Assembly (NCBI GenBank): GCA_937919165.1
Contig: CALFPO010000026.1
Coordinates: 4,057-68,056 of the forward strand
Source: an uncultured Bacillota bacterium
GTDB lineage: Bacteria > Bacillota_I > Bacilli_A > Erysipelotrichales > Erysipelotrichaceae
DNA: 64,000 nt
Direction of reading: 5' to 3'
Part shown: piece by piece, positions 1-14,803 of the stretch
How positions within the stretch are numbered: position 1 is the stretch's first letter
Layout: every line of letters begins with the position of its first letter
The notes under the pieces: generated by a model
Told to the model about the DNA's origin: nothing
Databases searched by the model: none
The model's input: the letters and a program-made list of their open reading frames with translations, nothing else
Made by a program: the position numbers and the translations under genes

Positions 1-296
1 CTGTTGTTAATAATAATATGTTTCAAAAGATATCTGATCACAGGATAGTTAGCTATTTAGGGAAAATTACAATGCCAATGCTTATGATACATCCATGCCT
101 TATTGAGCTTGTGAATCTGATAGGTTCAGGTAATGGAATTATATTGATAATATGTCGTTTTTTTGTCCTGTTGGTCTTGGTACTTATAGCTTCTGTTGTA
201 CTTGATGTCATAATAAAATACCTTATGAAATTTGCAGACATGATAATTGATGTTGTTTTTGATAGAGTAAACAAGGTTACTAGGAGAAATGATTAA
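1..296 (+). CDS. 3' end of a membrane acyltransferase (acyltransferase family 3-like), 5'-truncated by the window edge
   Basis: The frame is open from nt 3 with no stop. '...SYLGKITMPMLMIHPCLIEL...' followed by a hydrophobic helix resembles the conserved C-terminal block of AT3 O-acyltransferases. The 3' end overlaps the next gene start. Confidence 0.4.
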   Translation, partial: VVNNNMFQKISDHRIVSYLGKITMPMLMIHPCLIELVNLIGSGNGIILIICRFFVLLVLVLIASVVLDVIIKYLMKFADMIIDVVFDRVNKVTRRND

Positions 297-2076
297 AGAA
301 CTATTGTATCCGTTTGATCCAAATTACATTTTGGAAAACAAAAAAAGGATAAAGAAAAAACTGCTTGAAAATAGTAATGGTTTTATTGATAAAAAAATAG
401 CTATATTGGGTGGAGCGACTACATCGGCTATCAAGCAGATCATGGAACTATTCTTATTGAACAACGGTATCAAACCTTCTTTCTATGAATCTGAATACAA
501 CAAGTTCTATGAAGATGCGATGTTTGATAATCCGGAACTTAAAGAGTTTGGTCCTGATGTCATCTATGTATGTACAACCATAAGAAACATAATGGAATAT
601 CCTTCAATAACCGATGATGAAAAGGTTGTTAACGGCATTCTTAGCAACGAATGGATGAAATTTGAGAACATCTGGAAGAACTTAAGGGAAAGATATGGAT
701 GTCCGATTATTCAGAATAATTTTGAGATGCCTATGTATCGTCTTATGGGCAACAAAGAAGCAAGCGATATTCATGGCAAGATAAACTTCATCAATAGACT
801 AAATGTGCTGTTCTATGATTATGCACAGAAGAACGACAACTTCTATATTTGTGACATCAATTATATTTCTGCTGATTTTGGTTTGAAGGAATGGCATGAT
901 TCGTTTTATTTCCATATGTATAAATATGCAATGAATGTTAATGCAATCCCTTACCTATCTTTCAACGTAGCAAACATCATAAAGTCTTTGTTTGGCAAGA
1001 ACAAGAAAGGTTTTGTACTTGATCTTGATAACACTTTATGGGGCGGAGTCATCGGAGATGATGGAGTAGAAGGAATAAAGATTGGACCAGAAGAGCCGGA
1101 AGGAAGAGTATATACAGAATTCCAGAAATACATAAAGGAACATAAACAACTTGGCGTTATATTGAACATCGATTCCAAGAATGATTATGAAAATGCAATT
1201 GCAGGATTGAAACATCCGGATAGTGAACTTGATGAAGATGATTTCATTGAGATCAAGGCTAACTGGGATCCTAAGAACATCAACTTTGAAAAGATTGCTA
1301 AAGAGATTGATCTTCTTCCTGAAAGCCTTGTCTTTGTGGATGACAATCCAGCTGAGCGATATGTCGTGACCGAACAGCTGAAGGGGGTATGTGCTCCCGA
1401 AATAGACAACACAAAGCATTATATCCAATACTTGGATCGCAATGGCTTCTTTGAGACTACCACATTATCAAAAGATGATCTTAAGAGAAACGAGATGTAT
1501 AAGCAGAATGTGGAAAGGGCAAAGGCTGAAGCATCTTTTGAAAACTATAAGGACTATCTCCTTTCTTTGAATATGAAAGGTGTAATCATGCCTTTTGAAC
1601 CTATCTATTACGAAAGGATTGCCCAACTTTCCAATAAATCAAATCAATATAACCTGACCACTCATCGCTATACAGTAACAGATATAGAAAAAATATCTAA
1701 TGACGGTGATTATATATCGCTATACGGAAAACTTAGTGATCGTTTTGGCGATAACGGATTAGTTTCGGTTGTCATAGGACATATAGATAATGATACATGT
1801 AACGTTGATCTTTGGATCATGAGCTGCAGAGTCCTAAAGAGGGATCTTGAATATGCTATGATGGACGAGCTTGTCAGAAGGTGCAAGGAAAGAGGCATCA
1901 AAGAAATAAGAGGCTATTACTATCCTACGGCTAAGAACAGCATGGTAAGAGATTTCTATTCTCTGCAAGGATTTAGTAAAATAAATGAGGATGAAAAAGG
2001 GAATAGCACGTGGTCTTTGAATATTGAAGGTGACTATGTGAGTAAGAATGAAGTGATTGAGGTGGAACATGAATAG
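289..2076 (+). CDS. FkbH-like protein (HAD-superfamily IIIC phosphatase/acyl-loading domain plus C-terminal GNAT-like region)
   Basis: 595 aa. The hallmark 'GFVLDLDNTLWGGVIGDDGVEGIKIG' carries the DxDxT nucleophile motif (DLDNT = nt 1021-1035). An ACP gene follows immediately. Confidence 0.85.
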   Translation: MIKELLYPFDPNYILENKKRIKKKLLENSNGFIDKKIAILGGATTSAIKQIMELFLLNNGIKPSFYESEYNKFYEDAMFDNPELKEFGPDVIYVCTTIRNIMEYPSITDDEKVVNGILSNEWMKFENIWKNLRERYGCPIIQNNFEMPMYRLMGNKEASDIHGKINFINRLNVLFYDYAQKNDNFYICDINYISADFGLKEWHDSFYFHMYKYAMNVNAIPYLSFNVANIIKSLFGKNKKGFVLDLDNTLWGGVIGDDGVEGIKIGPEEPEGRVYTEFQKYIKEHKQLGVILNIDSKNDYENAIAGLKHPDSELDEDDFIEIKANWDPKNINFEKIAKEIDLLPESLVFVDDNPAERYVVTEQLKGVCAPEIDNTKHYIQYLDRNGFFETTTLSKDDLKRNEMYKQNVERAKAEASFENYKDYLLSLNMKGVIMPFEPIYYERIAQLSNKSNQYNLTTHRYTVTDIEKISNDGDYISLYGKLSDRFGDNGLVSVVIGHIDNDTCNVDLWIMSCRVLKRDLEYAMMDELVRRCKERGIKEIRGYYYPTAKNSMVRDFYSLQGFSKINEDEKGNSTWSLNIEGDYVSKNEVIEVEHE

Positions 2077-2311
2077 AGAAGATGTAATGAAAAGATTGAA
2101 TGATATATTCTGCACAGTATTCGATGATGATTCGATTGTACTTACAGACAAGACAAACGCCGAGGATATTGAAGATTGGGATTCCTTGGAGCAGATCAAT
2201 CTTATCGTTGCGATAGAGAATGAATTTGAGATGATGTTTGATATGAGCGAAGTCAGCGATCTGGCTAATGTGGGCGAAATGGCCGACCTTATCATGTCTA
2301 AGGCAGAGTAA
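2069..2311 (+). CDS. Acyl carrier protein
   Basis: About 80 aa and acidic. Phosphopantetheine site D-S-L lies in 'EDWDSLEQINLIVAIENEF' (Ser codon 2183-2185). ATG 2069 is preceded by GAGGTG; the track start 2057 is a TTG. The gene overlaps the FkbH stop. Confidence 0.85.
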   Translation: MNREDVMKRLNDIFCTVFDDDSIVLTDKTNAEDIEDWDSLEQINLIVAIENEFEMMFDMSEVSDLANVGEMADLIMSKAE

Positions 2312-2742
2312 TGAAGGAATATAGATACGAAGATTTATATATTGGGCTTACAGAATCATTCGAAGTTGAAATAACCGAAGAAATGATGAAGAGCTTTTTG
2401 ATTGTCACAGGAGATGAAAACCCTCTTCACAACGATGGTGTGTTTGCAAAAGAACAAGGTTATGAGAACAAGGTAGTCTATGGCATGTTGACAAGTTCTT
2501 TCGTGTCTAGGCTAGTAGGAGTATATTTACCAGGCAAGTATTGCTTGTTGCAGGGACTTGAAGCAAAATATCTTAGGCCTGTATATGTTAGAGATAGATT
2601 GAATATTTCTGGATCTATTGATGAACTTCATGAATCAGTTAAAAGGGCATCGGTAAAATTTGTTATAACAAACCAGCACGGAAAAAGGGTTGTAAAAGGA
2701 AAAGCTGATGTTGGCTTTCTGGAGATAATTAATTCCATATAA
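2311..2742 (+). CDS. MaoC-like (R)-specific hydratase/dehydratase, hot-dog fold
   Basis: 143 aa. 'VTGDENPLHNDGVFA' matches the MaoC active-site block (D-x-N-P-x-H). The start shares one nt with the ACP stop (TAATG). Confidence 0.8.
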   Translation: MKEYRYEDLYIGLTESFEVEITEEMMKSFLIVTGDENPLHNDGVFAKEQGYENKVVYGMLTSSFVSRLVGVYLPGKYCLLQGLEAKYLRPVYVRDRLNISGSIDELHESVKRASVKFVITNQHGKRVVKGKADVGFLEIINSI

Positions 2743-2845
2743 TATGTTTATTTATGTAAATACCGAAGCATGTTTTTTTATTTGATTGAGAAAGCGCAAA
2801 AAACAATAGATATAGAAGTTGAATATTGCAAGCAGATAATTGTTG

Positions 2846-3838
2846 ATGATTATTGCGATTATGAATACGAGCCTTTATGATTTGATAAGCAAGTATAAGA
2901 AATCACTTATGGGAGTTGCTGCTCTATGGATTTTTATATACCATTTTCCAAGCAGGTTTAGATTTGATGCAGTTCCATTGTTGTTTGAAATAGAATACTT
3001 CATAAAAAAAGCTGGTGATTGTGGAGTGAACATATTTTTCTTTCTTTCGGGAATTGGAGTTCCGAATTCCTATGATAGTTCGAAGAACGTAATCGTGTTT
3101 TATAAAAAAAGAATTTCAAGGATTTTTTTACCGGGTGTCGTATCGCATTTGCTAACTTCATATTTTTATGATTGGAGTTTTATTGAGTTTATCAAGAACG
3201 CTTCAGGATATACCTTCCTTTTCGAGAGCGTAAATAGTTATTTTTGGTTTTATTATGCAATCATTATTATCTATTTACTCTTCCCTTTGTACTACAAATA
3301 TTTCGTATCTTCCAACAACAAGACATCATTTTCTATTGCAGCCATTCTTTTCTTGTTTGTGATCATGGTTGTTGGTCGAAAGGTTATTAATGAAGATACG
3401 TATATTTTTTTAACAAGAATACCTGCTTTTATAATCGGGGTACTAGTAAACCATTTTGGAAAAAAGGGGAATAAAGCGGATGCCAAACGTTGGACCACAA
3501 TATTATATTTATTTATGTTTATTATAGGTGTGCTGACATTTTTCTTGACAGAAACGCAATATATATTGTTTCCTAACTTTTATATGTTTTTTTCATATAC
3601 CATTATTGCCGTTTCAATATGCGCGCTAACGAGCCATGTGTTTAAAACAAAAAAAACCTATTTATTCTCATTTTATGGTGACATTTCTCTAGAATTTTAC
3701 TCTTTTCAAAAGCACGCATTTTTCTCTTCTTTTGCCGGATCTAGGTTTTATGTCATCTTGGTATTTGCTTTATGTACCGTTTGCTCTTTAATCATTAGCA
3801 AATTGAATAAAGCGATAATAAAACGCCACCATGTTTAG
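2846..3838 (+). CDS. Membrane O-acyltransferase, acyltransferase family 3 (AT3)
   Basis: About 10 predicted hydrophobic helices. The N-terminal 'LMGVAALWIFIYHFPSRF' block is typical of AT3 (catalytic His after TM1). The start is uncertain: TTG 2840, ATG 2846 or ATG 2861. Confidence 0.7.
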   Translation: MIIAIMNTSLYDLISKYKKSLMGVAALWIFIYHFPSRFRFDAVPLLFEIEYFIKKAGDCGVNIFFFLSGIGVPNSYDSSKNVIVFYKKRISRIFLPGVVSHLLTSYFYDWSFIEFIKNASGYTFLFESVNSYFWFYYAIIIIYLLFPLYYKYFVSSNNKTSFSIAAILFLFVIMVVGRKVINEDTYIFLTRIPAFIIGVLVNHFGKKGNKADAKRWTTILYLFMFIIGVLTFFLTETQYILFPNFYMFFSYTIIAVSICALTSHVFKTKKTYLFSFYGDISLEFYSFQKHAFFSSFAGSRFYVILVFALCTVCSLIISKLNKAIIKRHHV

Positions 3839-3937
3839 CATATATGCATATGTAGGTTTCATTAATTGGTGTATAAGGCGCAGCGTCTTCATTCGATAGA
3901 TAATTTTATGTACATATAATGTAGTAAAATTAATAAT

Positions 3938-5110
3938 ATGAAAAGGTATAATTTCAAAAAAATATCTTCGTATATTTTATTGTTGCTGATATTCATTTCT
4001 AGCACGGTTTTATTCTCTGATATGATGGTTGACAGAGTTCACAGTGATTTTTCAATTCATTTTGAACTATCAATGGAAGGAAAGGGATACTCGTTGATGA
4101 AGCTGATCATGGTTTCTCTTTATACCCTTACAGAATCAACACATTCTATTGCTGTTTTTTTCTCGCTGCTTGTTACATTTGGAACCGTTGTATGTGCACT
4201 GTGTTTAAAACGATTGTTGAAGCTGATGAATACGAATGCTGATTTTTATGAACTATTGATTATTTCGGCTTTAGGTATTTTTATATGCAAGTTGTGCATT
4301 CCTGACCTTTCGCCATACTATTATCATAATTCCCTTGTTACTCAGCCGTGGCACAATTCCACATATTTACTGATGCGTTTTTTTGCGCCCGTAGTTATTT
4401 CTTTATTCTTTTCAATACAAAAGAACTATGTTTTTAAGGTATCAGCACTTGATCTTTTGTCGTTTACTTTTTTCCTTTTCATGACAAACTTTTCTAAGCC
4501 AAATTTCGTTATTGCATTTGCTCCCGTCATGCTCTTTGTCCTTATAAAAGATTTCTTTAAAACAAAAACAAAAAGTTTTAAAAATGCTTTTCTATTTGGA
4601 ATGTGTGTAATTCTTGGCTGTAGCATTATGATTTATCAGAATAATGCTTTGTATCCAAAAGATGGTGATGTGAAGGTATTTGCTTCCCTTTCGGTTTTTA
4701 CCTCTTATCTAAGAAATAATAAGAAATGGCCTTTAGATTTCTTTTTAAATATGGCTTTTCCCATTGCAGCTACATATGTAACGCTAAAAAATAGAAGAAG
4801 AATTGATAGCTATTCTATGAAGGTTTTTTATCAATCATGGGCAATGTACATTATGTCCTTATTGGAGTTCCTTTTTATCGATGAAAGCGGATACAGGGCA
4901 GGCAACTACAACTTTAGATGGGGTGAACAGTTTTTTGCCTTTTATCTTTTCATTATATGCGCATGTATGATTATCAAGCAGAAGAAAGAGGCCACAATAA
5001 ATGACAGAGATTATTTTACGCTCAAGCACACCTACATATTGCATATTGTTTTCGGTGCATCTTTTTATGTATTGCTTGTCGTATTTAAATATTTATATTT
5101 GACAATTTAG
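3938..5110 (+). CDS. Polytopic membrane protein of unknown function (candidate Wzy-type polymerase or GT-C-like enzyme)
   Basis: 390 aa, very AT-rich, at least 9 hydrophobic segments. I recognise no family signature. Position is between an AT3 gene and yfhO. Confidence 0.5.
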   Translation: MKRYNFKKISSYILLLLIFISSTVLFSDMMVDRVHSDFSIHFELSMEGKGYSLMKLIMVSLYTLTESTHSIAVFFSLLVTFGTVVCALCLKRLLKLMNTNADFYELLIISALGIFICKLCIPDLSPYYYHNSLVTQPWHNSTYLLMRFFAPVVISLFFSIQKNYVFKVSALDLLSFTFFLFMTNFSKPNFVIAFAPVMLFVLIKDFFKTKTKSFKNAFLFGMCVILGCSIMIYQNNALYPKDGDVKVFASLSVFTSYLRNNKKWPLDFFLNMAFPIAATYVTLKNRRRIDSYSMKVFYQSWAMYIMSLLEFLFIDESGYRAGNYNFRWGEQFFAFYLFIICACMIIKQKKEATINDRDYFTLKHTYILHIVFGASFYVLLVVFKYLYLTI

Positions 5111-5137
5111 GAACCCATGTAACATATTGAATGTTAT

Positions 5138-5146
5138 TGTTATAAA
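5138..5146 (+). promoter_or_regulatory. Possible extended -10 element (TGTTATAAA) upstream of yfhO-like gene
   Basis: TGnTATAAa lies in the 59-nt intergenic gap, about 30 nt upstream of ATG 5176. Confidence 0.3.
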
Positions 5147-5175
5147 AAACTAAGAAATAAATAATTGCATTGAGA

Positions 5176-7797
5176 ATGAAAAGAAAGTATTATGCAATAT
5201 ACACGTTGTTATTTATGGGCATATGCTTAAACGTTTATGCCGCTTTTTATTTAAATAACAAAACATTCATCAACTGGGTCAATGATGGCTTTGCGCAGCA
5301 TTACAAGGCGTTAATATACTATTCCGAGTACCTGAGAGAATTATTAAGAAATGTATTTGTTGAGCACTCATTTACTGTGCCTCAATGGGATTTTTCGATT
5401 GGCGAGGGATCAGATATCATAACAACCCTCCACACATATGCCATAGGAGACCCTATTGCATTTTTCTCTGTTTTAGTTCCAAGGGAATATATTTATGTAT
5501 ACTATGATTTCAGCATTGTTTTGCGTCTATATATATCTGGCATTGCTTTTTCTGAACTATGTTTTTATACAAAAAAGACAGACATAATAAACGTATTGAC
5601 AGGAACGCTCATGTATGTCTTCTGTTTCTGGGCATTGTTCCATTCGAATGAGCATATCTACTTCCTTAATCCTATGATCTATATGCCACTGTTGGTGTTA
5701 GGAGTGGAAAAAATAATTAACAAAGATAAACCTTATATTTTTGTTTTGTCCGTTCTTTTCGGAGCCCTGAGCAATTTCTATTTCTTCTATATGATGGTGG
5801 TTTTGACGGTGATATATGTTGCTGTTAGATTGCTTACTATATATGGATTAAACTTTAAAGAAATCGGCAAAAACATTATTAGACTTTTTGTGTTTGCGAT
5901 TATGGGCGTTATGATGTCTGCGATTATTCTGCTTCCTGTTGTGTATGCTTTTGTATCCGACAGCAGAATAGGAGCCGATATTTCCTATATAAACCTGTAT
6001 TCAAGATTTTATTATGAAAGACTCTTTTCAATATTTGTGTCGAATGACAACCAATACGATTTGTGCATGGGTTTTGCTGCACCAGCCTTGTTTGGAATCG
6101 CATTATCAATTAGGAAGATTAAAAAGAATCCTTTATTCTTCTTGCTTGATGTTGTCGCTTTGATTCTTGTATGCGTTCCTTTGTGCGGAAGACTTATGAA
6201 TGGCATGTCATATCCAATCAATAGATGGAGTTTCGCATTGTCGTTGCTGTTTGCTTATCAGACAACATCAGAAATAGACGACTTTAAAGATAATAAGTTG
6301 TACCTTTTGATTTGTACCGTAGGATTCTTTGCGGCGGCGTTTGTATCGCCGTGGTCTAGGAACATAAGAGTATATGTGCCTATGTCCATATATATGGCAT
6401 ATATTGCGGTCTTGTATATAAAGATCAACGCAAATGCATTGGGAATGAATGCAAAAAGAGTTCTTATGCTTTTGCTTACAATCATAAACATCATATTTGT
6501 TGCAAATTATGATTACTCAGATTTTGGAATTGGAAGATCGAAACAAGGATTAGGCATCAAAGAAACAATTGATGAAACCTTCAATTCAGACTCCGAGGTT
6601 CTGAAACAGTATCTAAAAGAAGAAGATAACTATTTCTATAGGTTTTCGGCAAACACAATCCAGACAAATTCATCAATGATTGCTGATATGAAGTCAACAG
6701 ATTTCTATTGGAGTTTAACAAATCCAAACATAATAAGTTATCGAACAAAGCTAGCAATAAATGACTTTGCATCATACAGGTACAACGGCTATAACGACAG
6801 AGCCTCCCTTTATAGCCTTGCTAATGTAAAATACTTCTTTACAACCAGCAAGGAAGAGACCGTTCCATATGGATTCGTATATGATGGCTCAATCGAGAAT
6901 ATGGATATATACAGAAATGAATACTTCCTTCCTTTCGGCTATACATATGACGAGACAATCTCATATGATGAATGGAATAAACTGGATCCAGTAACAAAAC
7001 AGGAAGTATTGGCAAAAAGAATCGTCATCGAATCCGGTGATGATTCAAGCTTTGCTTCAAAGAAGAAAGAAGCTAATTTCAAATTGGTAGGCAACGACTT
7101 GATAGAAGTATTAGAAAAAGGATTTGAAGTAAAGGAACCAAATACTGAACTCACAATATCGGTTGAAGGGTATGATAATTGCGAAAACAGCTTGACATTT
7201 AACAATCTTAATTTTGACGATACAGAAGGATATGTTGAAGAGAATAGGACGGCTGTACCGATTGATGTTTATCTTGATGGGAAATATCAGAATGTTTTCT
7301 TCTGCACATCCGACTATCAGTTCTATACAGGAAGACATGATTTCTCGGCTTGTTTTGGATACAAGGAAGATGCTGCAAAAGAGATAAGGATTGTTTTCCC
7401 ATATCCTGGAGTATATACATATGACAGTATAACCTTTGATTGTTTGAGCTATGAAGAATACGAACAAGACATAGAATCTCTATGCAACGATACTTTATCT
7501 GATGTATTGTTTTCCGATAATCACATTTCAGGAAACATTAATTTGGAGGAAGACAAGTATTTGCTTTTATCCGTTCCTTACTCAAAGGGATGGAAGGCTT
7601 ATGCTGATGGAAAACAAGCAGAGCTTTTGAAAGCTAATGAATGCTACATGGCTATTAAGCTTGAAAAAGGCACTCACAATATTGAACTCAAGTATGAGAC
7701 ACCGTTCCTGAAGATTGGAGCATGTATAAGTGCATTATCAATGGTTGCGTTTGTTGCATATTGCATTCTTGATAGAAAAGGAAAAATCAACATATGA
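5176..7797 (+). CDS. yfhO: YfhO-family membrane protein (GT-C-type extracytoplasmic glycosyltransferase)
   Basis: About 873 aa. Multi-TM N-terminal part with 'WVNDGFAQHYKALIYYSEYLRELL' and 'AIGDPIAFFSVLVP', then a large soluble C-terminal domain and a terminal TM helix. This is the typical YfhO architecture. The track start 5170 is a TTG; ATG at 5176. Confidence 0.8.
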   Translation: MKRKYYAIYTLLFMGICLNVYAAFYLNNKTFINWVNDGFAQHYKALIYYSEYLRELLRNVFVEHSFTVPQWDFSIGEGSDIITTLHTYAIGDPIAFFSVLVPREYIYVYYDFSIVLRLYISGIAFSELCFYTKKTDIINVLTGTLMYVFCFWALFHSNEHIYFLNPMIYMPLLVLGVEKIINKDKPYIFVLSVLFGALSNFYFFYMMVVLTVIYVAVRLLTIYGLNFKEIGKNIIRLFVFAIMGVMMSAIILLPVVYAFVSDSRIGADISYINLYSRFYYERLFSIFVSNDNQYDLCMGFAAPALFGIALSIRKIKKNPLFFLLDVVALILVCVPLCGRLMNGMSYPINRWSFALSLLFAYQTTSEIDDFKDNKLYLLICTVGFFAAAFVSPWSRNIRVYVPMSIYMAYIAVLYIKINANALGMNAKRVLMLLLTIINIIFVANYDYSDFGIGRSKQGLGIKETIDETFNSDSEVLKQYLKEEDNYFYRFSANTIQTNSSMIADMKSTDFYWSLTNPNIISYRTKLAINDFASYRYNGYNDRASLYSLANVKYFFTTSKEETVPYGFVYDGSIENMDIYRNEYFLPFGYTYDETISYDEWNKLDPVTKQEVLAKRIVIESGDDSSFASKKKEANFKLVGNDLIEVLEKGFEVKEPNTELTISVEGYDNCENSLTFNNLNFDDTEGYVEENRTAVPIDVYLDGKYQNVFFCTSDYQFYTGRHDFSACFGYKEDAAKEIRIVFPYPGVYTYDSITFDCLSYEEYEQDIESLCNDTLSDVLFSDNHISGNINLEEDKYLLLSVPYSKGWKAYADGKQAELLKANECYMAIKLEKGTHNIELKYETPFLKIGACISALSMVAFVAYCILDRKGKINI

Positions 7798-9038
7798 AGA
7801 CGGTAATTATGGCTGGAGGAAAAGGAACAAGAATAAGTTCCGTTGCCTCTGATATCCCTAAGCCCATGATTAAGATAGATGGAAAGCCTGTTCTTGAACA
7901 CGAAATCGAGTGTCTGTATAAGCAGGGTTTCAATGACATCATAATCACCATTTCTCATCTTGGATATATCATTGAAGATTATTTTGGTGATGGATCAAGG
8001 TTTGGCGTAAATATTGAATATTTCAATGAGGAAAAACCATTAGGTAATGCTGGTGCGCTGTTTGAACTGAAAGATAAACTGACAGAAGACTTTCTGCTTT
8101 TGAATGCAGATAGTGTTTTTGATATTGATTTCAATCGTTTTGTTTCATATCACAAAGATAAAGGCGGATTGGCAACCCTATTTGTCCATCCAAATAGTCA
8201 TCCGTATGATTCGGGATTGATTGTTGCGAACAGCGATAATGAAGTTGTTTCATGGCTTAACAAAGAAGATGAAAGACCAAGATGGTACAAGAATTGCGTC
8301 AATGCAGGACTGCATATCCTTTCTCCTAAATTATTGGAGAATAGGCCAGAAGGCGAAAAGGTAGATCTTGATAGACAGGTATTGAAACCATTAAGTGGTA
8401 CAGGCAATATGCAAATTTATCCATCTCCAGAATACGTAAAAGATATGGGGACACCGGAAAGATACGAGCAGGTTTGTAAAGATTTCAAAAGCGGTCTGGT
8501 AAAGGAAAGAAATCTAGCCAATAAGCAGAAAGCCGTATTTCTTGATCGTGATGGAACCATAAACAGATATGTTGGATTCTTGAGAAACATTGATGATTTT
8601 GAATTGCTTGAAGATTCGGCAAAAGCAATCAGAAGAATAAACGAATCTGGATATCTATGTATTGTAGTTACCAATCAGCCAGTAATTGCTAGGGGCGATG
8701 TAACCTTTGATGAACTTGATGAAATCCATAATAAGATGGAAACTCTATTAGGCCTTGAAGGTGCATACCTTGATGGCATCTATTTCTGTCCGCATCATCC
8801 CGATAGCGGATTTGAAGGAGAGATAAAAGAACTTAAGATTGATTGCGATTGCCGCAAGCCAAAGCCAGGAATGTTGCTTAAGGCAGCTAAAGATTTTAAT
8901 ATTGATCTTGGCAGTTCGTATATGATTGGTGATGGCGATAATGACGTCAAAGCTGGTGAAGCTGCTGGTTGTAGAACCATAAAAATAGAAAGAGATGGAA
9001 ACTTATTGGATGCTGTAGAAAGCATCCTGAAAGGATAG
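7794..9038 (+). CDS. Fused D-glycero-D-manno-heptose 1-phosphate guanylyltransferase (HddC-like) and D,D-heptose 1,7-bisphosphate phosphatase (GmhB-like)
   Basis: N-terminal nucleotidyltransferase 'VIMAGGKGTRISS'. C-terminal HAD phosphatase with 'AVFLDRDGTINRY', 'CDCRKPKPGML' and 'MIGDGDNDVKAG' (GmhB signature). An ATGA overlap joins it to the yfhO stop. Confidence 0.8.
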   Translation: MKTVIMAGGKGTRISSVASDIPKPMIKIDGKPVLEHEIECLYKQGFNDIIITISHLGYIIEDYFGDGSRFGVNIEYFNEEKPLGNAGALFELKDKLTEDFLLLNADSVFDIDFNRFVSYHKDKGGLATLFVHPNSHPYDSGLIVANSDNEVVSWLNKEDERPRWYKNCVNAGLHILSPKLLENRPEGEKVDLDRQVLKPLSGTGNMQIYPSPEYVKDMGTPERYEQVCKDFKSGLVKERNLANKQKAVFLDRDGTINRYVGFLRNIDDFELLEDSAKAIRRINESGYLCIVVTNQPVIARGDVTFDELDEIHNKMETLLGLEGAYLDGIYFCPHHPDSGFEGEIKELKIDCDCRKPKPGMLLKAAKDFNIDLGSSYMIGDGDNDVKAGEAAGCRTIKIERDGNLLDAVESILKG

Positions 9039-9040
9039 AT

Positions 9041-9889
9041 ATGAAAATTGCTTTAGTAGGAAGTTCAGGATATATCTCGGGTTTCATAATTGATAGACTG
9101 AAAGACAGAAGTGATATTTTGAAGATTGATAAGAACGATGAAGCTGATGCTTATCTCGATCTGGAAAATGCTGTTGATTTCGATTATGACAAGTTGAATG
9201 GTATCGACTATGTAATCTTTCCTGCCGCTATTTCAAGTCCTGATTTATGTGAGAAAGAATATGATATGTGCTGGAGAATAAATGTCGGAGGAACAAAGAC
9301 ATTTATTGGCGAAGCTTTGAATAGAGGCTGCAAGACACTATTTTTTTCAAGTGATGCAGTGTTCGGAAGACATGAAGAAGAAACGTTTGATGAAGAATCG
9401 CCAACCGATGCATCTACAGCATATGGCAAGATGAAAAAAGCGATTGAAGATGAATTCAAGAAAAATAAGAACTTTAAGGCGATAAGATTGTCATATGTGG
9501 TTTCAAAGAAAGATAAATTCACAAAGTACTGTCTTAAGTGCATTGAGAGCGGAGAAACCGCTGAGATCTATGATCCGTTCTATAGAAACTGCATAACGAT
9601 AAATGATGTTTTAGATTGCATTGAATGGCTTATAGATAATTGGGAAGAATATGATCATACATTCCTAAATATCGCAGGAAGAGATCTTGTTGGAAGAGCA
9701 AATATCGCAAATGAATTGAACAGGTTATTCGATAATAAATTTAAATACGTTGTTGTGAATCCAGGAGAAGAATTCTATAGATGCAGGCCATCTGTTACAA
9801 GAATGAATAGCAAGTATCTGAGTGAATACGCAATACTCAAAGACGAATCATTTGTAGAAAAAATCAACAAGGAATTTAACGTCATATAA
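9041..9889 (+). CDS. NAD(P)-dependent SDR epimerase/reductase (candidate GDP-6-deoxy-4-keto-heptose 4-reductase)
   Basis: Rossmann 'KIALVGSSGYISGF' and YxxxK in 'STAYGKMKKAIE'. 282 aa, RmlD/DmhB-like size. The specific function is inferred from heptose-gene context only. Confidence 0.6.
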   Translation: MKIALVGSSGYISGFIIDRLKDRSDILKIDKNDEADAYLDLENAVDFDYDKLNGIDYVIFPAAISSPDLCEKEYDMCWRINVGGTKTFIGEALNRGCKTLFFSSDAVFGRHEEETFDEESPTDASTAYGKMKKAIEDEFKKNKNFKAIRLSYVVSKKDKFTKYCLKCIESGETAEIYDPFYRNCITINDVLDCIEWLIDNWEEYDHTFLNIAGRDLVGRANIANELNRLFDNKFKYVVVNPGEEFYRCRPSVTRMNSKYLSEYAILKDESFVEKINKEFNVI

Positions 9890-9927
9890 AGATATACATT
9901 GATTTAGAATTAATTAAAGAGGCTATT

Positions 9928-11025
9928 ATGACTGAGCAAGAATGTAAGACATTTTCCAAGAATGATACCTATGTTACAAAAGGTATTGCAATTCTTTTGA
10001 TGCTTTTCCATCATGTATTTTTTAACACTTTTGTTATCGATGGGGTTCATACAGAATTAACATTCATACTTCCTTCACTAACAAGACTATTGTGTAAATA
10101 TGGCAACGTTTGTGTAGCTATTTTTTCGACGCTTAGTGGCTACGGTATCTATAAGCAGTTAAAGAAATATGATTTAAAAGAAGTAATAGTAAAAAGAGAA
10201 ATAAAACTCTTGGGAACATATATTCCAATTTTTGTATTAAGTTCTTTGATTTATATAATTAACAATAATTCACCTAATGAGGGAGGCATAATTGCATATT
10301 TAACCATCTTTGGATTAGGGGAGTACAATTCTGTTTCTATCATTTTTAGAATTATCATAAATATGTTTGGCTTGAATGCATTATTTCATATGCCAACATT
10401 AAATCCGTCTTGGTGGTATCTAAGTGTTGCACACATTATAAATTTTGTTTTGCCTATTTTTATCAAAATAGCCGAATCAAAAAGAATAAAAAATGTAGTA
10501 TTGGCAATAATTGTAGTTTACTGCGCATATGTGACAAAAGACTCATATTCATACCAAGGCGGTTTTTCTTCGAATCTAATGGCATCATATTTCGGATACT
10601 ATATTGGCACAACCGAGATCTTTGAGAGAAGTAACAACATCACGAATTCTATTGCAGCGGCAATATTCTTTGCTTGTGCAACCTTGCTGGATGTAAGTCT
10701 TCTGGAAACACTTGATACATATTTTTGTTTTTCGATAATGGGCATCTGTTTGATGATTTTCGTTAAATACTTCCGTCCTATACACATAGAAATCATTGAA
10801 AAGCCGTTATCTTTTTTTGGAAAGCATTCTGGAACAATGTATATGATTCACAATTTTGTTATTGACTCATTTCTTCATTTTCCTATGAAGTATGCAGCGA
10901 TGGTGTATGTTTTGGTCTTGTTGGTAACCTTATTAATAAGTGCGGTAGTTGATAGGATTTTTGGTATGATGCCATACAAAAGATTTCTTAATAAAATGCA
11001 GAATAAAACAATAGATTCCTTTTAG
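9928..11025 (+). CDS. Membrane O-acyltransferase, AT3 family
   Basis: 365 aa and polytopic. 'GIAILLMLFHHVFF' is an AT3 N-terminal His block. RBS AAAGAGG lies upstream. Confidence 0.7.
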   Translation: MTEQECKTFSKNDTYVTKGIAILLMLFHHVFFNTFVIDGVHTELTFILPSLTRLLCKYGNVCVAIFSTLSGYGIYKQLKKYDLKEVIVKREIKLLGTYIPIFVLSSLIYIINNNSPNEGGIIAYLTIFGLGEYNSVSIIFRIIINMFGLNALFHMPTLNPSWWYLSVAHIINFVLPIFIKIAESKRIKNVVLAIIVVYCAYVTKDSYSYQGGFSSNLMASYFGYYIGTTEIFERSNNITNSIAAAIFFACATLLDVSLLETLDTYFCFSIMGICLMIFVKYFRPIHIEIIEKPLSFFGKHSGTMYMIHNFVIDSFLHFPMKYAAMVYVLVLLVTLLISAVVDRIFGMMPYKRFLNKMQNKTIDSF

Positions 11026-11062
11026 GTTTGTTGTTGGTCGAAACAGCACCGAAAACATAGTA

Positions 11063-11071
11063 TGGTATAAT
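11063..11071 (+). promoter_or_regulatory. Candidate extended -10 promoter (TGGTATAAT) for the gmhA-hddA-dehydratase unit
   Basis: A perfect TGnTATAAT sits in the 74-nt gap, about 29 nt upstream of ATG 11100. A purine-rich RBS (AGGAAGGAAAGGA) lies between them. Confidence 0.45.
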
Positions 11072-11099
11072 TTTTAGGAAGGAAAGGATTCTTTTTGTT

Positions 11100-11747
11100 A
11101 TGAGAAAAATTGTAAAACAGGAATTTGAGAACTTGTTTGAAAGATATCCTCAGCTTGAGGTTTGCAGAAAAGATATCGAGAAAGCATATAACTTATTACA
11201 AAAAACATACGACAACAATCACAAGCTTTTGATTGCCGGAAATGGCGGTTCAGCAGCTGATAGCGAACATATGGCCGGTGAGCTCATGAAGCGTTTTAAG
11301 GCTCCTAGGCCTATAGATAATGAATTAAGAAAGAAACTCATTAAAGTTGATAAGGAAATCGGTGAAAGATTGTCTAATGATTTGGAATCTCCTTTGAGAG
11401 CCGTTCCTTTGACATCGCATATATCCATTACTACAGCATACATGAATGATGCTGATGCTAAGGGTGTGTATGCACAACAGATGCTTGGTTTTGGCGATGA
11501 TGGTGATACATTCATCGGCATTTCTACTTCAGGCAATTCGGAGAACATCATCAATGCCTGCGTTGTTGCAAAGGCAATGGGAATCAAGATAATCGGATTG
11601 ACAGGAGAAAAAGAAAGCAAATTATCCAAGATGGCCGATATCTGCATAAGAGTTCCAGAGGCGGATACTTATAAAGTTCAGGAATTGCATCTTCCTATAT
11701 ATCATTGTCTATGCTTGATGCTGGAGAATAACTATTTTAGGAAATAA
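11100..11747 (+). CDS. gmhA: Sedoheptulose-7-phosphate isomerase (phosphoheptose isomerase)
   Basis: SIS domain with 'LLIAGNGGSAADSEHMAGELMKRF' and 'GISTSGNSENIINA'. Confidence 0.9.
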   Translation: MRKIVKQEFENLFERYPQLEVCRKDIEKAYNLLQKTYDNNHKLLIAGNGGSAADSEHMAGELMKRFKAPRPIDNELRKKLIKVDKEIGERLSNDLESPLRAVPLTSHISITTAYMNDADAKGVYAQQMLGFGDDGDTFIGISTSGNSENIINACVVAKAMGIKIIGLTGEKESKLSKMADICIRVPEADTYKVQELHLPIYHCLCLMLENNYFRK

Positions 11748-11749
11748 TC

Positions 11750-12760
11750 ATGATAATAACTAAGACCCCTTTCAGGATGTCCTTCTTTGGCGGAGGAACT
11801 GACATAAAAGAATTCTATGAGAAAAACGGCGGAGCAGTAATTTCTTCTACTTTTGATAAGTATGTATATGTGACTGTAAGACATCTTCCAAGATTTTTTG
11901 AATACAAGAATCAAGTAACCTATTCCAAGATTGAAAGAACCAATAACACTGAAGATATAGAACATCCAATGGTCAGAAATGCAATGAAGCATCTTGATAT
12001 GCATGAGTTGCTTATCCAATATGATGCCGATCTTCCTGCAAGGTCGGGTCTTGGAAGCAGCAGTTCTTTTGCTGTGGGTCTGATAAATGCCTTCTATGCC
12101 TTAAAGGGAAAGTATGCCGACAAGAGAAAGCTTGCGGATGATGCAATCTATGTTGAAAGAGAAATGTGCCAGGAATCAGGTGGTCTGCAAGATCAGATTG
12201 CTGCTTCATATGGTGGTCTGAACAGAATAGATTTCGATGAGAATGGCTATACTGTAACGCCAATAATCATTTCTCCTGAAAGAAAAGAAAAGCTCAATGA
12301 TAATCTGATGCTGTTCTTTACGGGATTCTCAAGATTCTCTGCCGATGTTCAGAAAGATACCAAGAAGAATATCGAGAAGAAGACTGAGATTCTTATGGAA
12401 ATGAAGAATATGGTTGATGAAGCAGAAAAGATTCTGGAAGATAAGACAAGAAATCTTAACGACTTTGGTAAGCTGATGGATAAGTCTTGGAAACTCAAAA
12501 GGGAAACAGGTTCCAAGATCAGCACAAACGAAATCGATAAGATATATGACAAAGCTATTGAGGCTGGTGCCTTAGGTGGAAAGCTGCTTGGTGCTGGCGG
12601 TGGCGGATTCATGCTGTTCTATGTGCCTAAAGTTAAACAGAAGAAGGTCAAGGAAGCATTGAATAATCTACTGTATGTTCCATTCAGATTCGAGAATCAG
12701 GGAACACAGATCATATACTACACACCTGAGCAGTTCAGTGTTGAAGGAGCGATGAAATGA
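11750..12760 (+). CDS. hddA: D-glycero-alpha-D-manno-heptose 7-phosphate kinase (GHMP kinase)
   Basis: 'TKTPFRMSFFGGGTDI' at the N-terminus and GHMP motif 'LPARSGLGSSSSFAVGL'. About 336 aa. Confidence 0.85.
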   Translation: MIITKTPFRMSFFGGGTDIKEFYEKNGGAVISSTFDKYVYVTVRHLPRFFEYKNQVTYSKIERTNNTEDIEHPMVRNAMKHLDMHELLIQYDADLPARSGLGSSSSFAVGLINAFYALKGKYADKRKLADDAIYVEREMCQESGGLQDQIAASYGGLNRIDFDENGYTVTPIIISPERKEKLNDNLMLFFTGFSRFSADVQKDTKKNIEKKTEILMEMKNMVDEAEKILEDKTRNLNDFGKLMDKSWKLKRETGSKISTNEIDKIYDKAIEAGALGGKLLGAGGGGFMLFYVPKVKQKKVKEALNNLLYVPFRFENQGTQIIYYTPEQFSVEGAMK

Positions 12761-13792: not shown

Positions 13793-14803
13793 ATGGGAAA
13801 GAAACTGATAATACTGTCTGAACAGAAGTCTTATATCAAGAAGTCTGCAAGTGCTCCTCAGGTCGATGGACAGGAGAGAGGCTTTTTGAAGTATGGAAAT
13901 GGTGAAGTTGACATCAAATACAAAAGCATCATTTTGAAGAACATAAACAGATTCACATCTAAGCTGCATATGCCTCTGTTATGCGATTCGTTTACTAAGA
14001 AGAAATATGAGAATTCTGTTTTCATCCATATCTCGGTGAATCTGAACTATCTCGAAGACAACGTTCATCTATTGAAGGAACTCAAGAAACATGGCAATGA
14101 GGTTGCCTTGTACTGCTACGATTGCTGGGAACCTGAATTCGAGGAATGGAGAAAGGTGATCGATGAAATCAATCCGGATTATCTGTTCTTTGCTTACAAG
14201 CTTACGGATGAGTATTATCGCAAAAATGGATACAACAGCTATTGGGTACCGTTGAGTGCTGATTATGAAGTGTTCAAATATAAAGACAAGCCTAGAACAA
14301 GAATGTTCATGCAGATGGGAAGATTCAACAAAGATATCCATTCTAGCATCCTCAAATATTTAGAGAATCATAATCTTGAGGACAATCGTGATAACTATGC
14401 ATACCGTCGCGACAGGAATGAGACGCTCTATCCTGAATTGAGCGATTTGGTAGATGCCATTAATGAGACAAAATACTTTGTGTGCATTCCAAAGTTCTAT
14501 GAGAACTTCAAGCGCACCGGAAATGTCAACGACATAATCTGCCGCTATTTTGAAGGTATGATCTGCAAGACGATGATTATCGGCAAGAAGCCAGAGACCT
14601 GGTCAGAACTGATGCCAGAAGATGCAATGATCACTTTTGAAGATGATTATTCTGACTTTGATGAGAAGATCGAATTCTTTGAGAAGAATCCCGACAAGTA
14701 TCAGGAGATTGTTGATAGGAATTATGACTATATTCTTAAGCACCATAGTTGGGGCAATAGATTGGAAACTATACTGAAGGCAATCAATGATGGCAAACAA
14801 TAA
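13793..14803 (+). CDS. Putative glycosyltransferase (CgeB / Glyco_trans_1_2-like C-terminal region)
   Basis: The C-terminal 'RYFEGMICKTMIIGKKPE...FFEKNPDKYQEI...ILKHHSW' resembles CgeB-type GT-B C-terminal halves. The assignment is weak. Confidence 0.35.
   Translation: MGKKLIILSEQKSYIKKSASAPQVDGQERGFLKYGNGEVDIKYKSIILKNINRFTSKLHMPLLCDSFTKKKYENSVFIHISVNLNYLEDNVHLLKELKKHGNEVALYCYDCWEPEFEEWRKVIDEINPDYLFFAYKLTDEYYRKNGYNSYWVPLSADYEVFKYKDKPRTRMFMQMGRFNKDIHSSILKYLENHNLEDNRDNYAYRRDRNETLYPELSDLVDAINETKYFVCIPKFYENFKRTGNVNDIICRYFEGMICKTMIIGKKPETWSELMPEDAMITFEDDYSDFDEKIEFFEKNPDKYQEIVDRNYDYILKHHSWGNRLETILKAINDGKQ

Follow-up and report, generated by a model that had tools for sequence, protein, structure and literature searches.

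A candidate glyceryl-ACP donor module for acylation of a nonulosonic acid-bearing surface glycan

Results

We analysed a 64 kb stretch of DNA from an uncultured Erysipelotrichaceae bacterium (the window), together with a further 18 kb upstream on a 99.97%-identical public contig (L006), and found both filled with glycan genes. At the start of the window lies a cassette encoding an FkbH-type enzyme, a dedicated carrier protein (ACP) and a MaoC-type hydratase/dehydratase. Our proposal, to which we give an even chance, is that these genes form a glyceryl-ACP donor module, its acyl group dehydrated by MaoC, for acylating a surface glycan that bears a nonulosonic acid (NulO), a sialic-acid-like sugar. 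Its logic would be Dlt-like with a different loader; the final chemistry and the transferase are what we infer from the features set out below.

The order had been described preliminarily as an AT3 membrane acyltransferase fragment, FkbH, ACP, MaoC and a second, full AT3 gene, and open reading frames and HMM searches place all five genes at the positions and in the families then given. Their catalytic motifs are intact. Direct reading of the sequence also bears out the overlapping stops and starts of the first four genes: AT3 and FkbH share 8 nt, FkbH and ACP share 8 nt (the likely ACP start is the ATG at 2069, overlapping the fkbH stop), and ACP and MaoC share 1 nt (TAATG). The AT3, FkbH, ACP and MaoC genes are translationally coupled; the second AT3 follows after a gap of ~100 nt, and no terminator-like site is found in positions 1–5300.

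The FkbH gene (289..2076, + strand) scores 246.6 bits against the TIGR01686 FkbH domain (cutoff 146.65), 56.2 bits against TIGR01681 HAD-IIIC (cutoff 35.75) and 54.6 bits against Pfam FkbH_N (PF21211), and its product combines an N-terminal FkbH_N domain, a HAD-IIIC phosphatase domain and a C-terminal domain with Ser-Cys-Arg. Across 20 relatives of 31–92% identity, D245 of the DLDNT motif (residues 245–249, nt 1021–1035) is invariant, and D247 and T249 (DxDxT) and C513 (of S512-C513-R514) are at least 90% conserved; the sole solved relative, 3SLR, is an uncharacterised protein. The ACP (80 aa, 2069..2311, + strand; PP-binding, 25.7 bits, cutoff 20.8) has its phosphopantetheine serine (DSL) at residue 39 (nt 2183–2185). 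From its sequence, FkbH is predicted to be a glyceryl-S-ACP synthase that uses 1,3-bisphosphoglycerate. As family membership and the intact motifs suggest, it would take the glyceryl unit of this donor while the HAD domain strips the 3-phosphate, and D-glyceryl would pass via the conserved FkbH cysteine onto the neighbouring ACP's phosphopantetheine arm.

FkbH, OzmB, RkD and Tmn16 of polyketide and tetronate pathways have in common with the cassette an HMM family matched above its curated cutoff, the DxDxT and Ser-Cys-Arg motifs and an adjoining dedicated ACP, and to our knowledge every FkbH enzyme with an established biochemical activity works in a PKS or tetronate pathway. That the cassette is itself a polyketide, tetronate or methoxymalonate-type secondary-metabolite pathway, placed in a glycan locus by chance, nevertheless strikes us as very improbable: unlike those systems, it has no ketosynthase or other PKS part, the 64 kb window and 18 kb upstream contain no KS, AT, FabH-like, FkbG/I/K or thioesterase gene, and related loci, where sampled, have glycan, MBOAT or housekeeping genes as neighbours. 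The absence of ketosynthase, PKS and FkbG/I/K genes first reported for the window is borne out across all its ORFs of 150 aa or more. Nor is the cassette's link to glycans undone by PKS/FAS genes just outside the window, a concern raised in the preliminary description, because the window and the 18 kb upstream consist of glycan genes. Since the context is one of cell-wall glycan genes, the cassette probably yields an acyl decoration rather than a starter or extender unit for a chain.

MaoC (2311..2742, + strand; MaoC_dehydratas, 53.4 bits, cutoff 27) is a MaoC/PhaJ-type single hot-dog (R)-hydratase/dehydratase that carries the motif FLIVTGDENPLHNDGVFA, with the Asp and His of the hydratase motif GDENPLH. 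On the strength of this motif and of gene order, it is predicted to take water off glyceryl-S-ACP in a second step, giving 2-hydroxyacryloyl (enol-pyruvoyl)-S-ACP, which would tautomerise to pyruvoyl-S-ACP; relatives with a FabG-like reductase would carry the group onward to lactyl-S-ACP. The same glyceryl-to-pyruvoyl-to-lactyl logic governs the DH-KR-FkbH-ACP loading modules of bryostatin and FR901464, which resemble the cassette in their dehydratase and some relatives in their reductase: DH and KR turn FkbH-loaded glyceryl-ACP into lactyl-ACP in the FR901464 module, and the same is proposed for bryostatin. Those modules use a PKS DH domain, whereas the cassette has a stand-alone single hot-dog protein. 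As far as we know, pyruvoyl esters are not familiar as polysaccharide substituents.

A census of 79 non-redundant loci related to the FkbH locus supports the action of MaoC on glyceryl-ACP, as first supposed: MaoC occurs in 20 loci, immediately 3' of the ACP in 15, and a FabG-like reductase (SDR), often the next gene, is present in 10. The closest solved structures, 5CPG and 1IQ6, are PhaJ-type (R)-specific enoyl-CoA hydratases, and MaoC could instead be PhaJ-like, converting crotonyl-CoA to an (R)-3-hydroxybutyryl thioester for a 3-hydroxybutanoyl NulO decoration while FkbH-ACP serves a separate end. 3-Hydroxybutanoyl NulOs are common, and in one related locus (L089) a PhaA/PhaB-like pair, thiolase plus SDR, comes after ACP and MaoC. 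We judge this role improbable: most of the 15 loci with MaoC straight after FkbH-ACP are without NulO genes, the window contains no thiolase or SDR partner, and the 1-nt overlap ties MaoC to the carrier protein.

With respect to the transferase, the census shows an ACP adjoining FkbH in 71 of the 79 loci, a DltB-like MBOAT within 8 kb of FkbH (the distance over which MBOATs were counted) in 57, and an AlgX/DHHW/SGNH-like partner, the MBOAT's usual companion, in 41. In NCBIfam the only model that the MBOATs match is that of DltB, at 115–183 bits, which is below cutoff. Because of this census, the idea of a Dlt-like hand-off is well supported for the FkbH-ACP family; the part of it that stands is the passage of a carrier-borne acyl group to a polytopic membrane acyltransferase, and the part that does not is AT3 as the partner, found in only four of the 79 loci. 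In the third step, for which we rely on conserved synteny, a polytopic membrane acyltransferase would move the acyl group from ACP at the cytoplasmic face to the glycan. In most relatives this would be the DltB-like MBOAT with its AlgX/SGNH-like partner; in the present locus the best candidate is the AT3 immediately upstream of fkbH (AT3u). Searches by tblastn of the window and the 10 kb immediately upstream reveal no MBOAT, DHHW, U365-like gene, SDR or thiolase, and precomputed Pfam annotation extends the absence of MBOAT to the 18 kb upstream; no MBOAT lies within 80 kb of the cassette, and no FabG-like reductase nearby.

Of AT3u, which encodes an AT3 membrane acyltransferase of 322 aa, the window contains the 3' end (1..296, + strand). 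Its Acyl_transf_3 match (25.3 bits, nt 18–296) spans profile positions 266–324 of 326, and the fragment is thus a C-terminal piece; the gene begins 673 nt before the window does, and the whole of it (L006, 9040–10008) carries PF01757, with the conserved motif K16-x10-H27 present. All eight detectable homologs of AT3u (32–100% identity) lie between a CMP-NulO synthetase gene and fkbH; they stem from loci that are close relatives of one another and do not represent independent cases. Each of three AT3 lineages, which share ~35% identity with one another, immediately precedes the start of an fkbH; for one lineage, what follows is an fkbH 5' remnant of 68 nt. Only one small NulO-associated clade shows the link of AT3 with FkbH-ACP. 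In two close relatives, L001 and L090, the upstream AT3 is accompanied by an MBOAT pair; there the MBOAT could therefore be the true client of the ACP, with the AT3 acting as an ordinary O-acetyltransferase for the NulO.

The second AT3 (AT3d; 2840..3838, alternative start 2846, + strand; Acyl_transf_3, 73.7 bits, cutoff 31) is a doubtful member of the cassette. BLAST detects no similarity between it and either AT3u (alignment identity ~18%) or the AT3 downstream of MaoC in L003. Nor is it conserved in relatives: its position is taken by an MBOAT pair in L090, by an IS element in L001 and by an antisense AT3 in L003. The region has eight AT3 genes in ~82 kb, so bracketing by AT3s, once offered as support, is weak evidence alone, as is a mere place next to one. 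The AT3 O-acetyltransferases OafA/OafB and Oac are alike in Pfam family, conserved TM1 histidine and kind of genomic setting, and Lag-1 is an AT3 able to O-acylate legionaminic acid. The known donors of these enzymes are acyl-CoA, as for characterised AT3s generally; we know of no AT3 that draws an acyl group from a carrier protein, and an ACP-borne donor for the cassette AT3 would be new.

The genes upstream of the cassette suggest an acceptor. On the public contig the order is PtmE-like, NeuD/PglD (171.6 bits), NeuB (499 bits), NeuC (451.7 bits), CMP-NulO synthetase, AT3, AT3 and FkbH: a legionaminic-acid-type NulO operon lies just upstream of the window and runs straight into AT3-FkbH. Because the last gene of this operon, the CMP-sugar synthetase, directly precedes AT3u, the acceptor would be a legionaminic-acid-type NulO or a glycan bearing it. 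This is likelier than the amino sugars made downstream that had been suggested before the NulO genes came into view.

The same setting admits a cytoplasmic route, the main rival and a real if minority possibility: FkbH-ACP (with or without MaoC) would supply a glyceroyl-type group to the C5 or C7 amino group of a legionaminic-acid precursor or CMP-sugar through a soluble N-acyltransferase, either the upstream NeuD/PglD-type left-handed beta-helix enzyme or an unrecognised one, with the AT3s on either side acting as ordinary O-acetyltransferases. The NeuD/PglD protein is weakly similar to the acyl-ACP users LpxA and LpxD. Glycerate-derived acyl groups on NulOs, N-glyceroyl groups included, are real, and the responsible genes have been described as unidentified or elusive (PMC5378307; PMC6120980). 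Parallels are the Pse5Am7Gra of Tannerella forsythia, the di-O-methylglyceroyl-Pse of Campylobacter jejuni 11168 and the Vibrio vulnificus Pse with C7 glyceric acid, all with a glycerate-type C3 acyl on a 5,7-diamino NulO; by mass arithmetic, the acyl group takes the place of an N-acetyl group. C. jejuni is like the cassette in having an fkbH-domain gene, cj1302 (of putative role), within a NulO locus, that of flagellin glycosylation; cj1302 is a pseudogene in strain 12664, and a lack of dimethylglyceroyl-Pse in that strain was a possibility its authors sought to rule out for lost FlaGrab binding (PMC7099621). The C. jejuni dimethylglyceroyl-NulO is already present as a CMP-sugar (preprint 10.64898/2026.04.20.719630), which points to cytoplasmic N-acylation without a membrane acyltransferase in that organism. 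The groups of all three species are N-linked, with no AT3, MBOAT or MaoC role reported. Moreover, in three NulO-linked relatives (L011, L072, L083) FkbH-ACP is accompanied by a polysaccharide deacetylase and a ~325-aa soluble protein, with neither MBOAT nor AT3 present. However, this deacetylase and 325-aa protein are absent from the window and the 18 kb upstream, a plain glyceroyl group needs no MaoC, and membrane acyltransferases accompany FkbH-ACP family-wide (57 of 79 loci). Furthermore, members of the AT3u subfamily are found nowhere but between NeuA and fkbH, a restriction that would go unexplained if AT3u were an unrelated O-acetyltransferase.

Discussion

The reading we prefer, acylation of a NulO-bearing glycan from a glyceryl-ACP donor, resembles the Dlt system (DltA ligase, DltC carrier, DltB MBOAT, DltD) in that a thioester-bound acyl group on a small dedicated carrier would reach a cell-wall glycopolymer through a polytopic membrane acyltransferase. 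The related loci share this likeness through their MBOATs, and an SGNH/AlgX-like extracytoplasmic protein usually fills the place of DltD. The two differ in several respects: firstly, the Dlt loader is an ATP-dependent adenylating ligase, whereas that of the cassette is FkbH, a HAD phosphatase/acyltransferase acting on a glycolytic acyl phosphate; secondly, the Dlt acyl group is D-alanine, whereas that of the cassette would be a C3 hydroxy or keto acid; thirdly, FkbH loci, unlike Dlt, have a predicted on-carrier tailoring step by MaoC, sometimes with an SDR; fourthly, the window lacks MBOAT and DltD-like genes, and an AT3 stands there instead. The proposed route, encoded in the surface-sugar locus of a gut bacterium, is a candidate origin of "glyceroyl" sugar decorations.

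The FkbH, ACP and MaoC genes overlap

The forward strand of the window opens with the 3' end of an AT3 acyltransferase gene (AT3u; last 92 residues, to nt 296) and continues with genes for an FkbH protein of 595 aa (289–2076), an ACP of 80 aa (ATG at 2069, to 2311), a MaoC protein of 143 aa (2311–2742) and, ~100 nt further on, a second AT3 of 332 aa (AT3d; 2840–3838). As read from the sequence, AT3u and FkbH overlap by 8 nt and ACP and MaoC by 1 nt (TAATG); the ACP start likewise overlaps the fkbH stop by 8 nt, as expected of a dedicated carrier protein. We found no terminator-like sites in 1–5300, and promoter-like sites there were fewer than in shuffled sequences; the lack of terminators is consistent with one operon and nothing more.

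Profile HMMs placed each complete protein in the family that a preliminary description had proposed, and the landmarks it had named (DLDNT at 1021–1035, the DSL serine, Ser39, at 2183–2185, and TGDENPLHND) were exact. FkbH exceeded the cutoffs of the FkbH domain (TIGR01686; 246.6 bits, cutoff 146.65), HAD-IIIC (TIGR01681; 56.2, cutoff 35.75) and FkbH_N (PF21211; 54.6, cutoff 27) models. Its HAD motif I (DxDxT) is DLDNT at residues 245–249, and its C-terminal domain carries the triplet S512-C513-R514, the cysteine of which we take to be catalytic, as reported for OzmB and FkbH. An alignment of 20 relatives (31–92% identity) shows no change at D245 and conservation of at least 90% at D247, T249 and C513; because DxDxT and C513 are kept in this way, FkbH looks catalytically competent. 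By every feature that can be tested in sequence, it is a bona fide FkbH-family member.

The ACP matches the PP-binding model PF00550 (25.7 bits, cutoff 20.8) with Ser39 of its Asp-Ser-Leu motif as attachment site, and the MaoC protein matches MaoC_dehydratas (PF01575; 53.4 bits, cutoff 27). The latter contains, with catalytic Asp and His, the hydratase motif (F-LI-V-T-G-D-E-N-P-L-H-x5-A), across which it aligns to PhaJ (R)-hydratases (5CPG). AT3d scores 73.7 bits against Acyl_transf_3 (cutoff 31); the AT3u fragment reaches 25.3, under that cutoff, because the window holds only its last 92 residues, and the full-length protein carries PF01757. Among 11 aligned AT3s the conserved TM1 histidine, H27, is invariant and K16 and H255 are nearly so, while RXXR-type motifs, considered as a clue to the donor, vary among all of them and do not discriminate. 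The solved structures matched were 3SLR (FkbH; an uncharacterized structural-genomics protein), 2LML (a putative ACP and the best PDB match of the carrier, E = 3e-18) and PhaJ (MaoC), none of which informs acyl hand-off.

The cassette adjoins a legionaminic-acid-type operon

Upstream sequence came from L006, a public contig (ENA ERZ1767517 NODE_1180) that encodes an identical FkbH protein and matches window 1–3713 at 99.97%. The 18 kb upstream begin, in order, with two small EamA proteins, an AT3, an ATP-grasp protein, an epimerase, a GT2 enzyme and a DegT aminotransferase, followed by unknown proteins of 346 and 662 aa and another AT3. A nonulosonic acid (NulO) operon encodes, in order, a PtmE-like CBS-nucleotidyltransferase, a NeuD/PglD N-acetyltransferase, NeuB, a hydrolysing NeuC and a CMP-NulO synthetase; after it come a 312-aa AT3, a 62-aa ORF and the 322-aa AT3u (L006 9040–10008), and then FkbH-ACP-MaoC. 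This operon matches the NeuB_NnaB (499 bits, cutoff 399.65), NeuC (451.7, cutoff 235.9) and NeuD (171.6, cutoff 160.8) models and includes the PtmE-like protein with its CBS and NTP_transferase domains, whereas the PseF-type cytidylyltransferase score of 188 falls under the cutoff of 205.7. These are the features of a legionaminic-acid-type NulO operon just upstream of the window, the stereoisomer not being readable from sequence. Because the operon runs into AT3u-FkbH-ACP-MaoC, the cassette is, by gene order, its 3' continuation.

Downstream, the window is a long, almost wholly co-directional cell-wall glycan region, in which the only sizeable minus-strand genes encode an ATP-grasp protein and a GT4 glycosyltransferase (19238–20368 and 21533–22747). 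It encodes a YfhO glycosyltransferase, a GDP-heptose pathway (HddC-GmhB fusion, GmhA, GHMP kinase and GMD-like dehydratase), PglF/E/C/D-type di-N-acetylbacillosamine enzymes, many GT4 and GT2 enzymes, LicD, a Wzx flippase, an ABC-2 exporter and RmlABCD. The G+C content is 33–36% in 1–12000 (cassette, YfhO and heptose genes) versus 39–43% in 12001–64000, a difference which suggests that the segment with the NulO, FkbH and heptose genes is variable or was acquired separately. L006 (13426–13964) diverges from the window inside AT3d (from 3714), giving a product of 308 rather than 332 aa, and the final 539 nt of L006 have no counterpart in the window; the cause is either variation between strains or a join made in assembly where the contig ends.

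Several further genes of the region deserve mention. Two proteins lack Pfam and NCBIfam matches, namely a 390-aa polytopic membrane protein directly after AT3d (3938–5110) and the 662-aa protein upstream of the NulO operon (L006 122–2110), the latter with 41 relatives that are all unnamed or 'hypothetical'; the 662-aa protein could be the NulO transferase or a polymerase. Genes for a VTC-domain protein, a DUF4956 protein and a CotH kinase-like protein are grouped within the glycan locus (33514–36496), and the same trio also lies beside the cassette in Erysipelotrichaceae MAG loci (e.g. 17302–20433 of L003). AT3 genes, an unusually dense set of membrane O-acyltransferases in ~82 kb of one glycan region, lie at 2840–3838, 9928–11025, 14787–15812 and 23482–24516 of the window and at 1759–2751, 10218–11303, 15977–16915 and 17143–18111 of L093; most of these eight show no BLAST-detectable similarity to one another (alignment identities 15–37%).

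A polyketide role for the cassette is essentially excluded by this setting. As first described from the window, no ketosynthase, PKS or FkbG/I/K-type gene occurs among its ORFs of at least 150 aa, nor does a FabH-like one, and none of these occurs in the 18 kb upstream. The possibility that PKS or FAS genes might lie just outside the window was followed into those 18 kb, and we rejected it: the sizeable ORFs of both stretches are all glycan or transport genes.

FkbH-ACP pairs recur in cell-wall glycan loci

The full-length FkbH architecture is very common: clustered at 50% identity, its relatives number 13,800 clusters at E ≤ 1e-3 and 4,748 at E ≤ 1e-30. We surveyed the neighborhoods of the best 80 of at least 597 matches in species-representative genomes (48–67% identity) together with the closest metagenomic loci, and all counts are over the resulting 79 non-redundant loci. 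ORFs were called with a simple caller, neighbors were clustered, recurrent clusters were named by Pfam and NCBIfam, and the counts were repeated with home-made HMMs over six-frame translations. The loci come mostly from Lachnospiraceae, Oscillospiraceae and uncultured Bacilli, with fewer from Synergistales, Odoribacter, Endomicrobiellum and an epsilonproteobacterium; the closest FkbH relatives are labelled Erysipelotrichaceae MAGs.

The survey, which the preliminary description had called for, revealed a cell-wall glycan setting, mostly with an ACP and a DltB-like MBOAT. An ACP lies beside FkbH in 71 of the 79 loci, and an MBOAT lies within 8 kb of FkbH in 57 (35 of the 46 whose flanks both extend for 6 kb or more). 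The only NCBIfam match of these MBOATs is the DltB model TIGR04091, at 115–183 bits and under its cutoff of 375. An extracytoplasmic AlgX-like partner (DHHW, PF14286, or a ~350-aa protein with a weak SGNH match) is present in 41 loci, MaoC in 20 (immediately 3' of the ACP in 15), a FabG-like SDR after MaoC in 10, and a CMP-NulO synthetase gene in 6. Where an MBOAT is lacking, the neighbors sampled are housekeeping or unrelated genes, not PKS genes. From these counts a family-wide pattern emerges of FkbH, ACP, optional tailoring, a DltB-like MBOAT and an SGNH-like partner, in which FkbH is the predicted loader, the ACP the predicted carrier, and MaoC (or MaoC with the SDR) a putative optional tailoring step on the carrier. 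By analogy, the family-wide system would be one of Dlt/Alg-type logic with a new loader.

The window's own system shares with Dlt the logic of carrier-protein-dependent glycopolymer acylation and differs from it in three respects: firstly, it has no DltA, FkbH being the loader instead, and no DltA-type adenylating ligase or AMP-binding protein was found among the window ORFs scanned; secondly, the window lacks a DltB MBOAT; thirdly, it lacks a DltD-type partner. Neither MBOAT (two queries), U365-type (two) nor DHHW (one) queries gave a tblastn match in the window or the 10 kb directly upstream, and the 18 kb upstream contain no MBOAT according to their precomputed Pfam annotation. In the literature searched, which is thin on subscription journals, we found no description of glycan loci in which an MBOAT or AT3 accompanies FkbH-ACP. 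The system joins two known elements, carrier-protein-dependent glycopolymer acylation and FkbH loading, in a new variant form.

A glyceryl-ACP donor is the most likely product

In the mechanism that we propose, FkbH most likely loads D-glyceryl from 1,3-bisphosphoglycerate onto the ACP, a step that follows established knowledge of the FkbH family and is applied here from membership and motifs. MaoC would then dehydrate the 2,3-dihydroxypropanoyl thioester to 2-hydroxyacryloyl, which would tautomerize to pyruvoyl-S-ACP. We infer this from the fixed ACP-MaoC order and from the MaoC/FabG-like pairs of relatives; for MaoC acting on glyceryl-S-ACP in the window, the evidence is synteny. The pairs mirror the DH and KR of the FR901464 and bryostatin loading modules, which reportedly turn glyceryl-ACP into lactyl-ACP. 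Finally, a membrane acyltransferase, here most plausibly AT3u by synteny, would move the acyl group to a NulO-bearing glycan. The substituent may be glyceroyl, pyruvoyl or lactyl, among which the present data cannot decide.

MaoC might instead be a PhaJ-like supplier of 3-hydroxybutanoyl groups, as suggested by the order ACP, MaoC, thiolase, SDR in L089, a NulO-linked locus. That reading leaves the FkbH-ACP-MaoC order of loci without NulO genes unexplained, and tblastn searches of the window and the 10 kb directly upstream detected neither an SDR nor a thiolase. Additional acyl-chemistry genes lie near the NulO operon in three close relatives of the cassette: an LDH/MDH-family dehydrogenase adjoining a deacetylase (L090 1–1752), a LuxE-LuxC fusion (L088 1–1453), and a thiolase, an SDR and a GNAT-like protein (L089 7970–10825). 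Their presence hints that the acyl group may differ from strain to strain.

A glyceryl-ACP could also serve cytoplasmic N-acylation of the NulO. Glycerate-type N-acyl groups are established on NulOs (Tannerella Pse5Am7Gra, Vibrio vulnificus Pse and C. jejuni di-O-methylglyceroyl-Pse), and the genes responsible have been called "yet to be identified" or "elusive" (PMC5378307; PMC6120980). The C. jejuni flagellin glycosylation locus holds an fkbH-domain gene, cj1302, which in strain 12664 is only a pseudogene; the text of that study mentions, as a possibility that the authors sought to rule out, that this strain lacks the dimethylglyceroyl glycan (PMC7099621). The modified C. jejuni sugar is already detected in its CMP-linked form (preprint 10.64898/2026.04.20.719630), and its formula shows that an N-acetyl group is replaced (PMC4975691), both of which favor a cytoplasmic step. 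So do three NulO-linked loci in which FkbH-ACP accompanies a Polysacc_deac_1 deacetylase and a ~325-aa soluble protein, with no MBOAT or AT3 nearby (L011 7987–9989, L072 5503–7467 and L083 6573–9965). The ~325-aa proteins have no Pfam match and share 38–45% identity, and together with the deacetylase they are a candidate route to N-glyceroyl NulOs by de-N-acetylation and re-N-acylation. However, no such NulO-linked pair occurs in the window or the 18 kb upstream, and we therefore rank N-acylation second to transfer by a membrane acyltransferase. Given these loci, FkbH-ACP seems to be a portable source of acyl groups for more than one kind of transferase.

AT3u as the candidate acyltransferase

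The preliminary description had envisaged a Dlt-like cassette bracketed by AT3 genes. Its Dlt-like logic is upheld by the frequency of MBOATs in the survey, but the general link to AT3s is not: an AT3 occurs in 4 of the 79 loci, and the position of AT3d is not conserved in relatives. AT3d has no BLAST-detectable similarity to the AT3u subfamily (alignment identity ~18%). A word-indexed protein search yielded only eight detectable homologs of AT3u (32–100% identity), a shallow detection, so that the bounds of the subfamily reflect a detection limit; a single-query metagenome scan gave 64 pattern matches, of which none was confirmed. Wherever the contig allows, all the homologs lie between the CMP-NulO synthetase gene and fkbH, a slot shared by three AT3 lineages of ~35% mutual identity, one of them that of the 312-aa AT3. 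The 5' end of fkbH recurs as a 68-nt copy at L006 8867–8934, ~800 nt upstream of window position 1, where it sits past the stop of the 312-aa AT3, opens the 62-aa ORF and precedes AT3u. It is 87% identical to window 289–356 (21 of 23 codons at the protein level) and, as a remnant pointing to cassette replacement at the AT3/fkbH junction, has the look of a scar left where an AT3 cassette was inserted or exchanged just 5' of fkbH.

These arrangements speak for a functional tie of the AT3u subfamily to the NulO and the FkbH product. An AT3 joined to FkbH is seen only within the clade to which the window belongs. Three points caution against reading too much into it: the loci compared are closely related; the region is dense in AT3 genes (eight in ~82 kb); and two clade members, L001 and L090, also carry an MBOAT and partner beside the cassette, so that in those two the ACP may serve the MBOAT. 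All characterized AT3s known to us take acyl-CoA as donor, a norm from which an ACP donor departs; an ACP-dependent AT3 is the more novel possibility, as compared with a new variant of known systems, and an unproven one. Only tentatively, and judging it rather doubtful, do we suggest the full claim: that AT3u is the first AT3 with an ACP rather than an acyl-CoA donor, adding a glyceroyl or pyruvoyl C3 ester to the legionaminic acid of a Gram-positive surface glycan, and that FkbH-ACP is a portable module for MBOAT, AT3 and soluble transferases that explains the 'elusive' glyceroyl NulOs.

Implications for surface glycan acylation

To our knowledge, FkbH enzymes have been known from polyketide and tetronate chemistry only. 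The thousands of FkbH relatives and the glycan setting of the 79 sampled loci point to a putative widespread route for surface acylation with C3 units derived from glycolysis, parallel to D-alanylation. FkbH-ACP beside NulO genes is a concrete candidate for the glyceroyl decoration of pseudaminic and legionaminic acids in Tannerella, Vibrio vulnificus and Campylobacter, and hand-off to an AT3, if true, would add a new kind of donor to those used by a very large family of acyltransferases. C3 acyl groups would alter the charge, hydrophilicity and antigenicity of gut-commensal surface glycans and may therefore bear on phage receptors and immune recognition.
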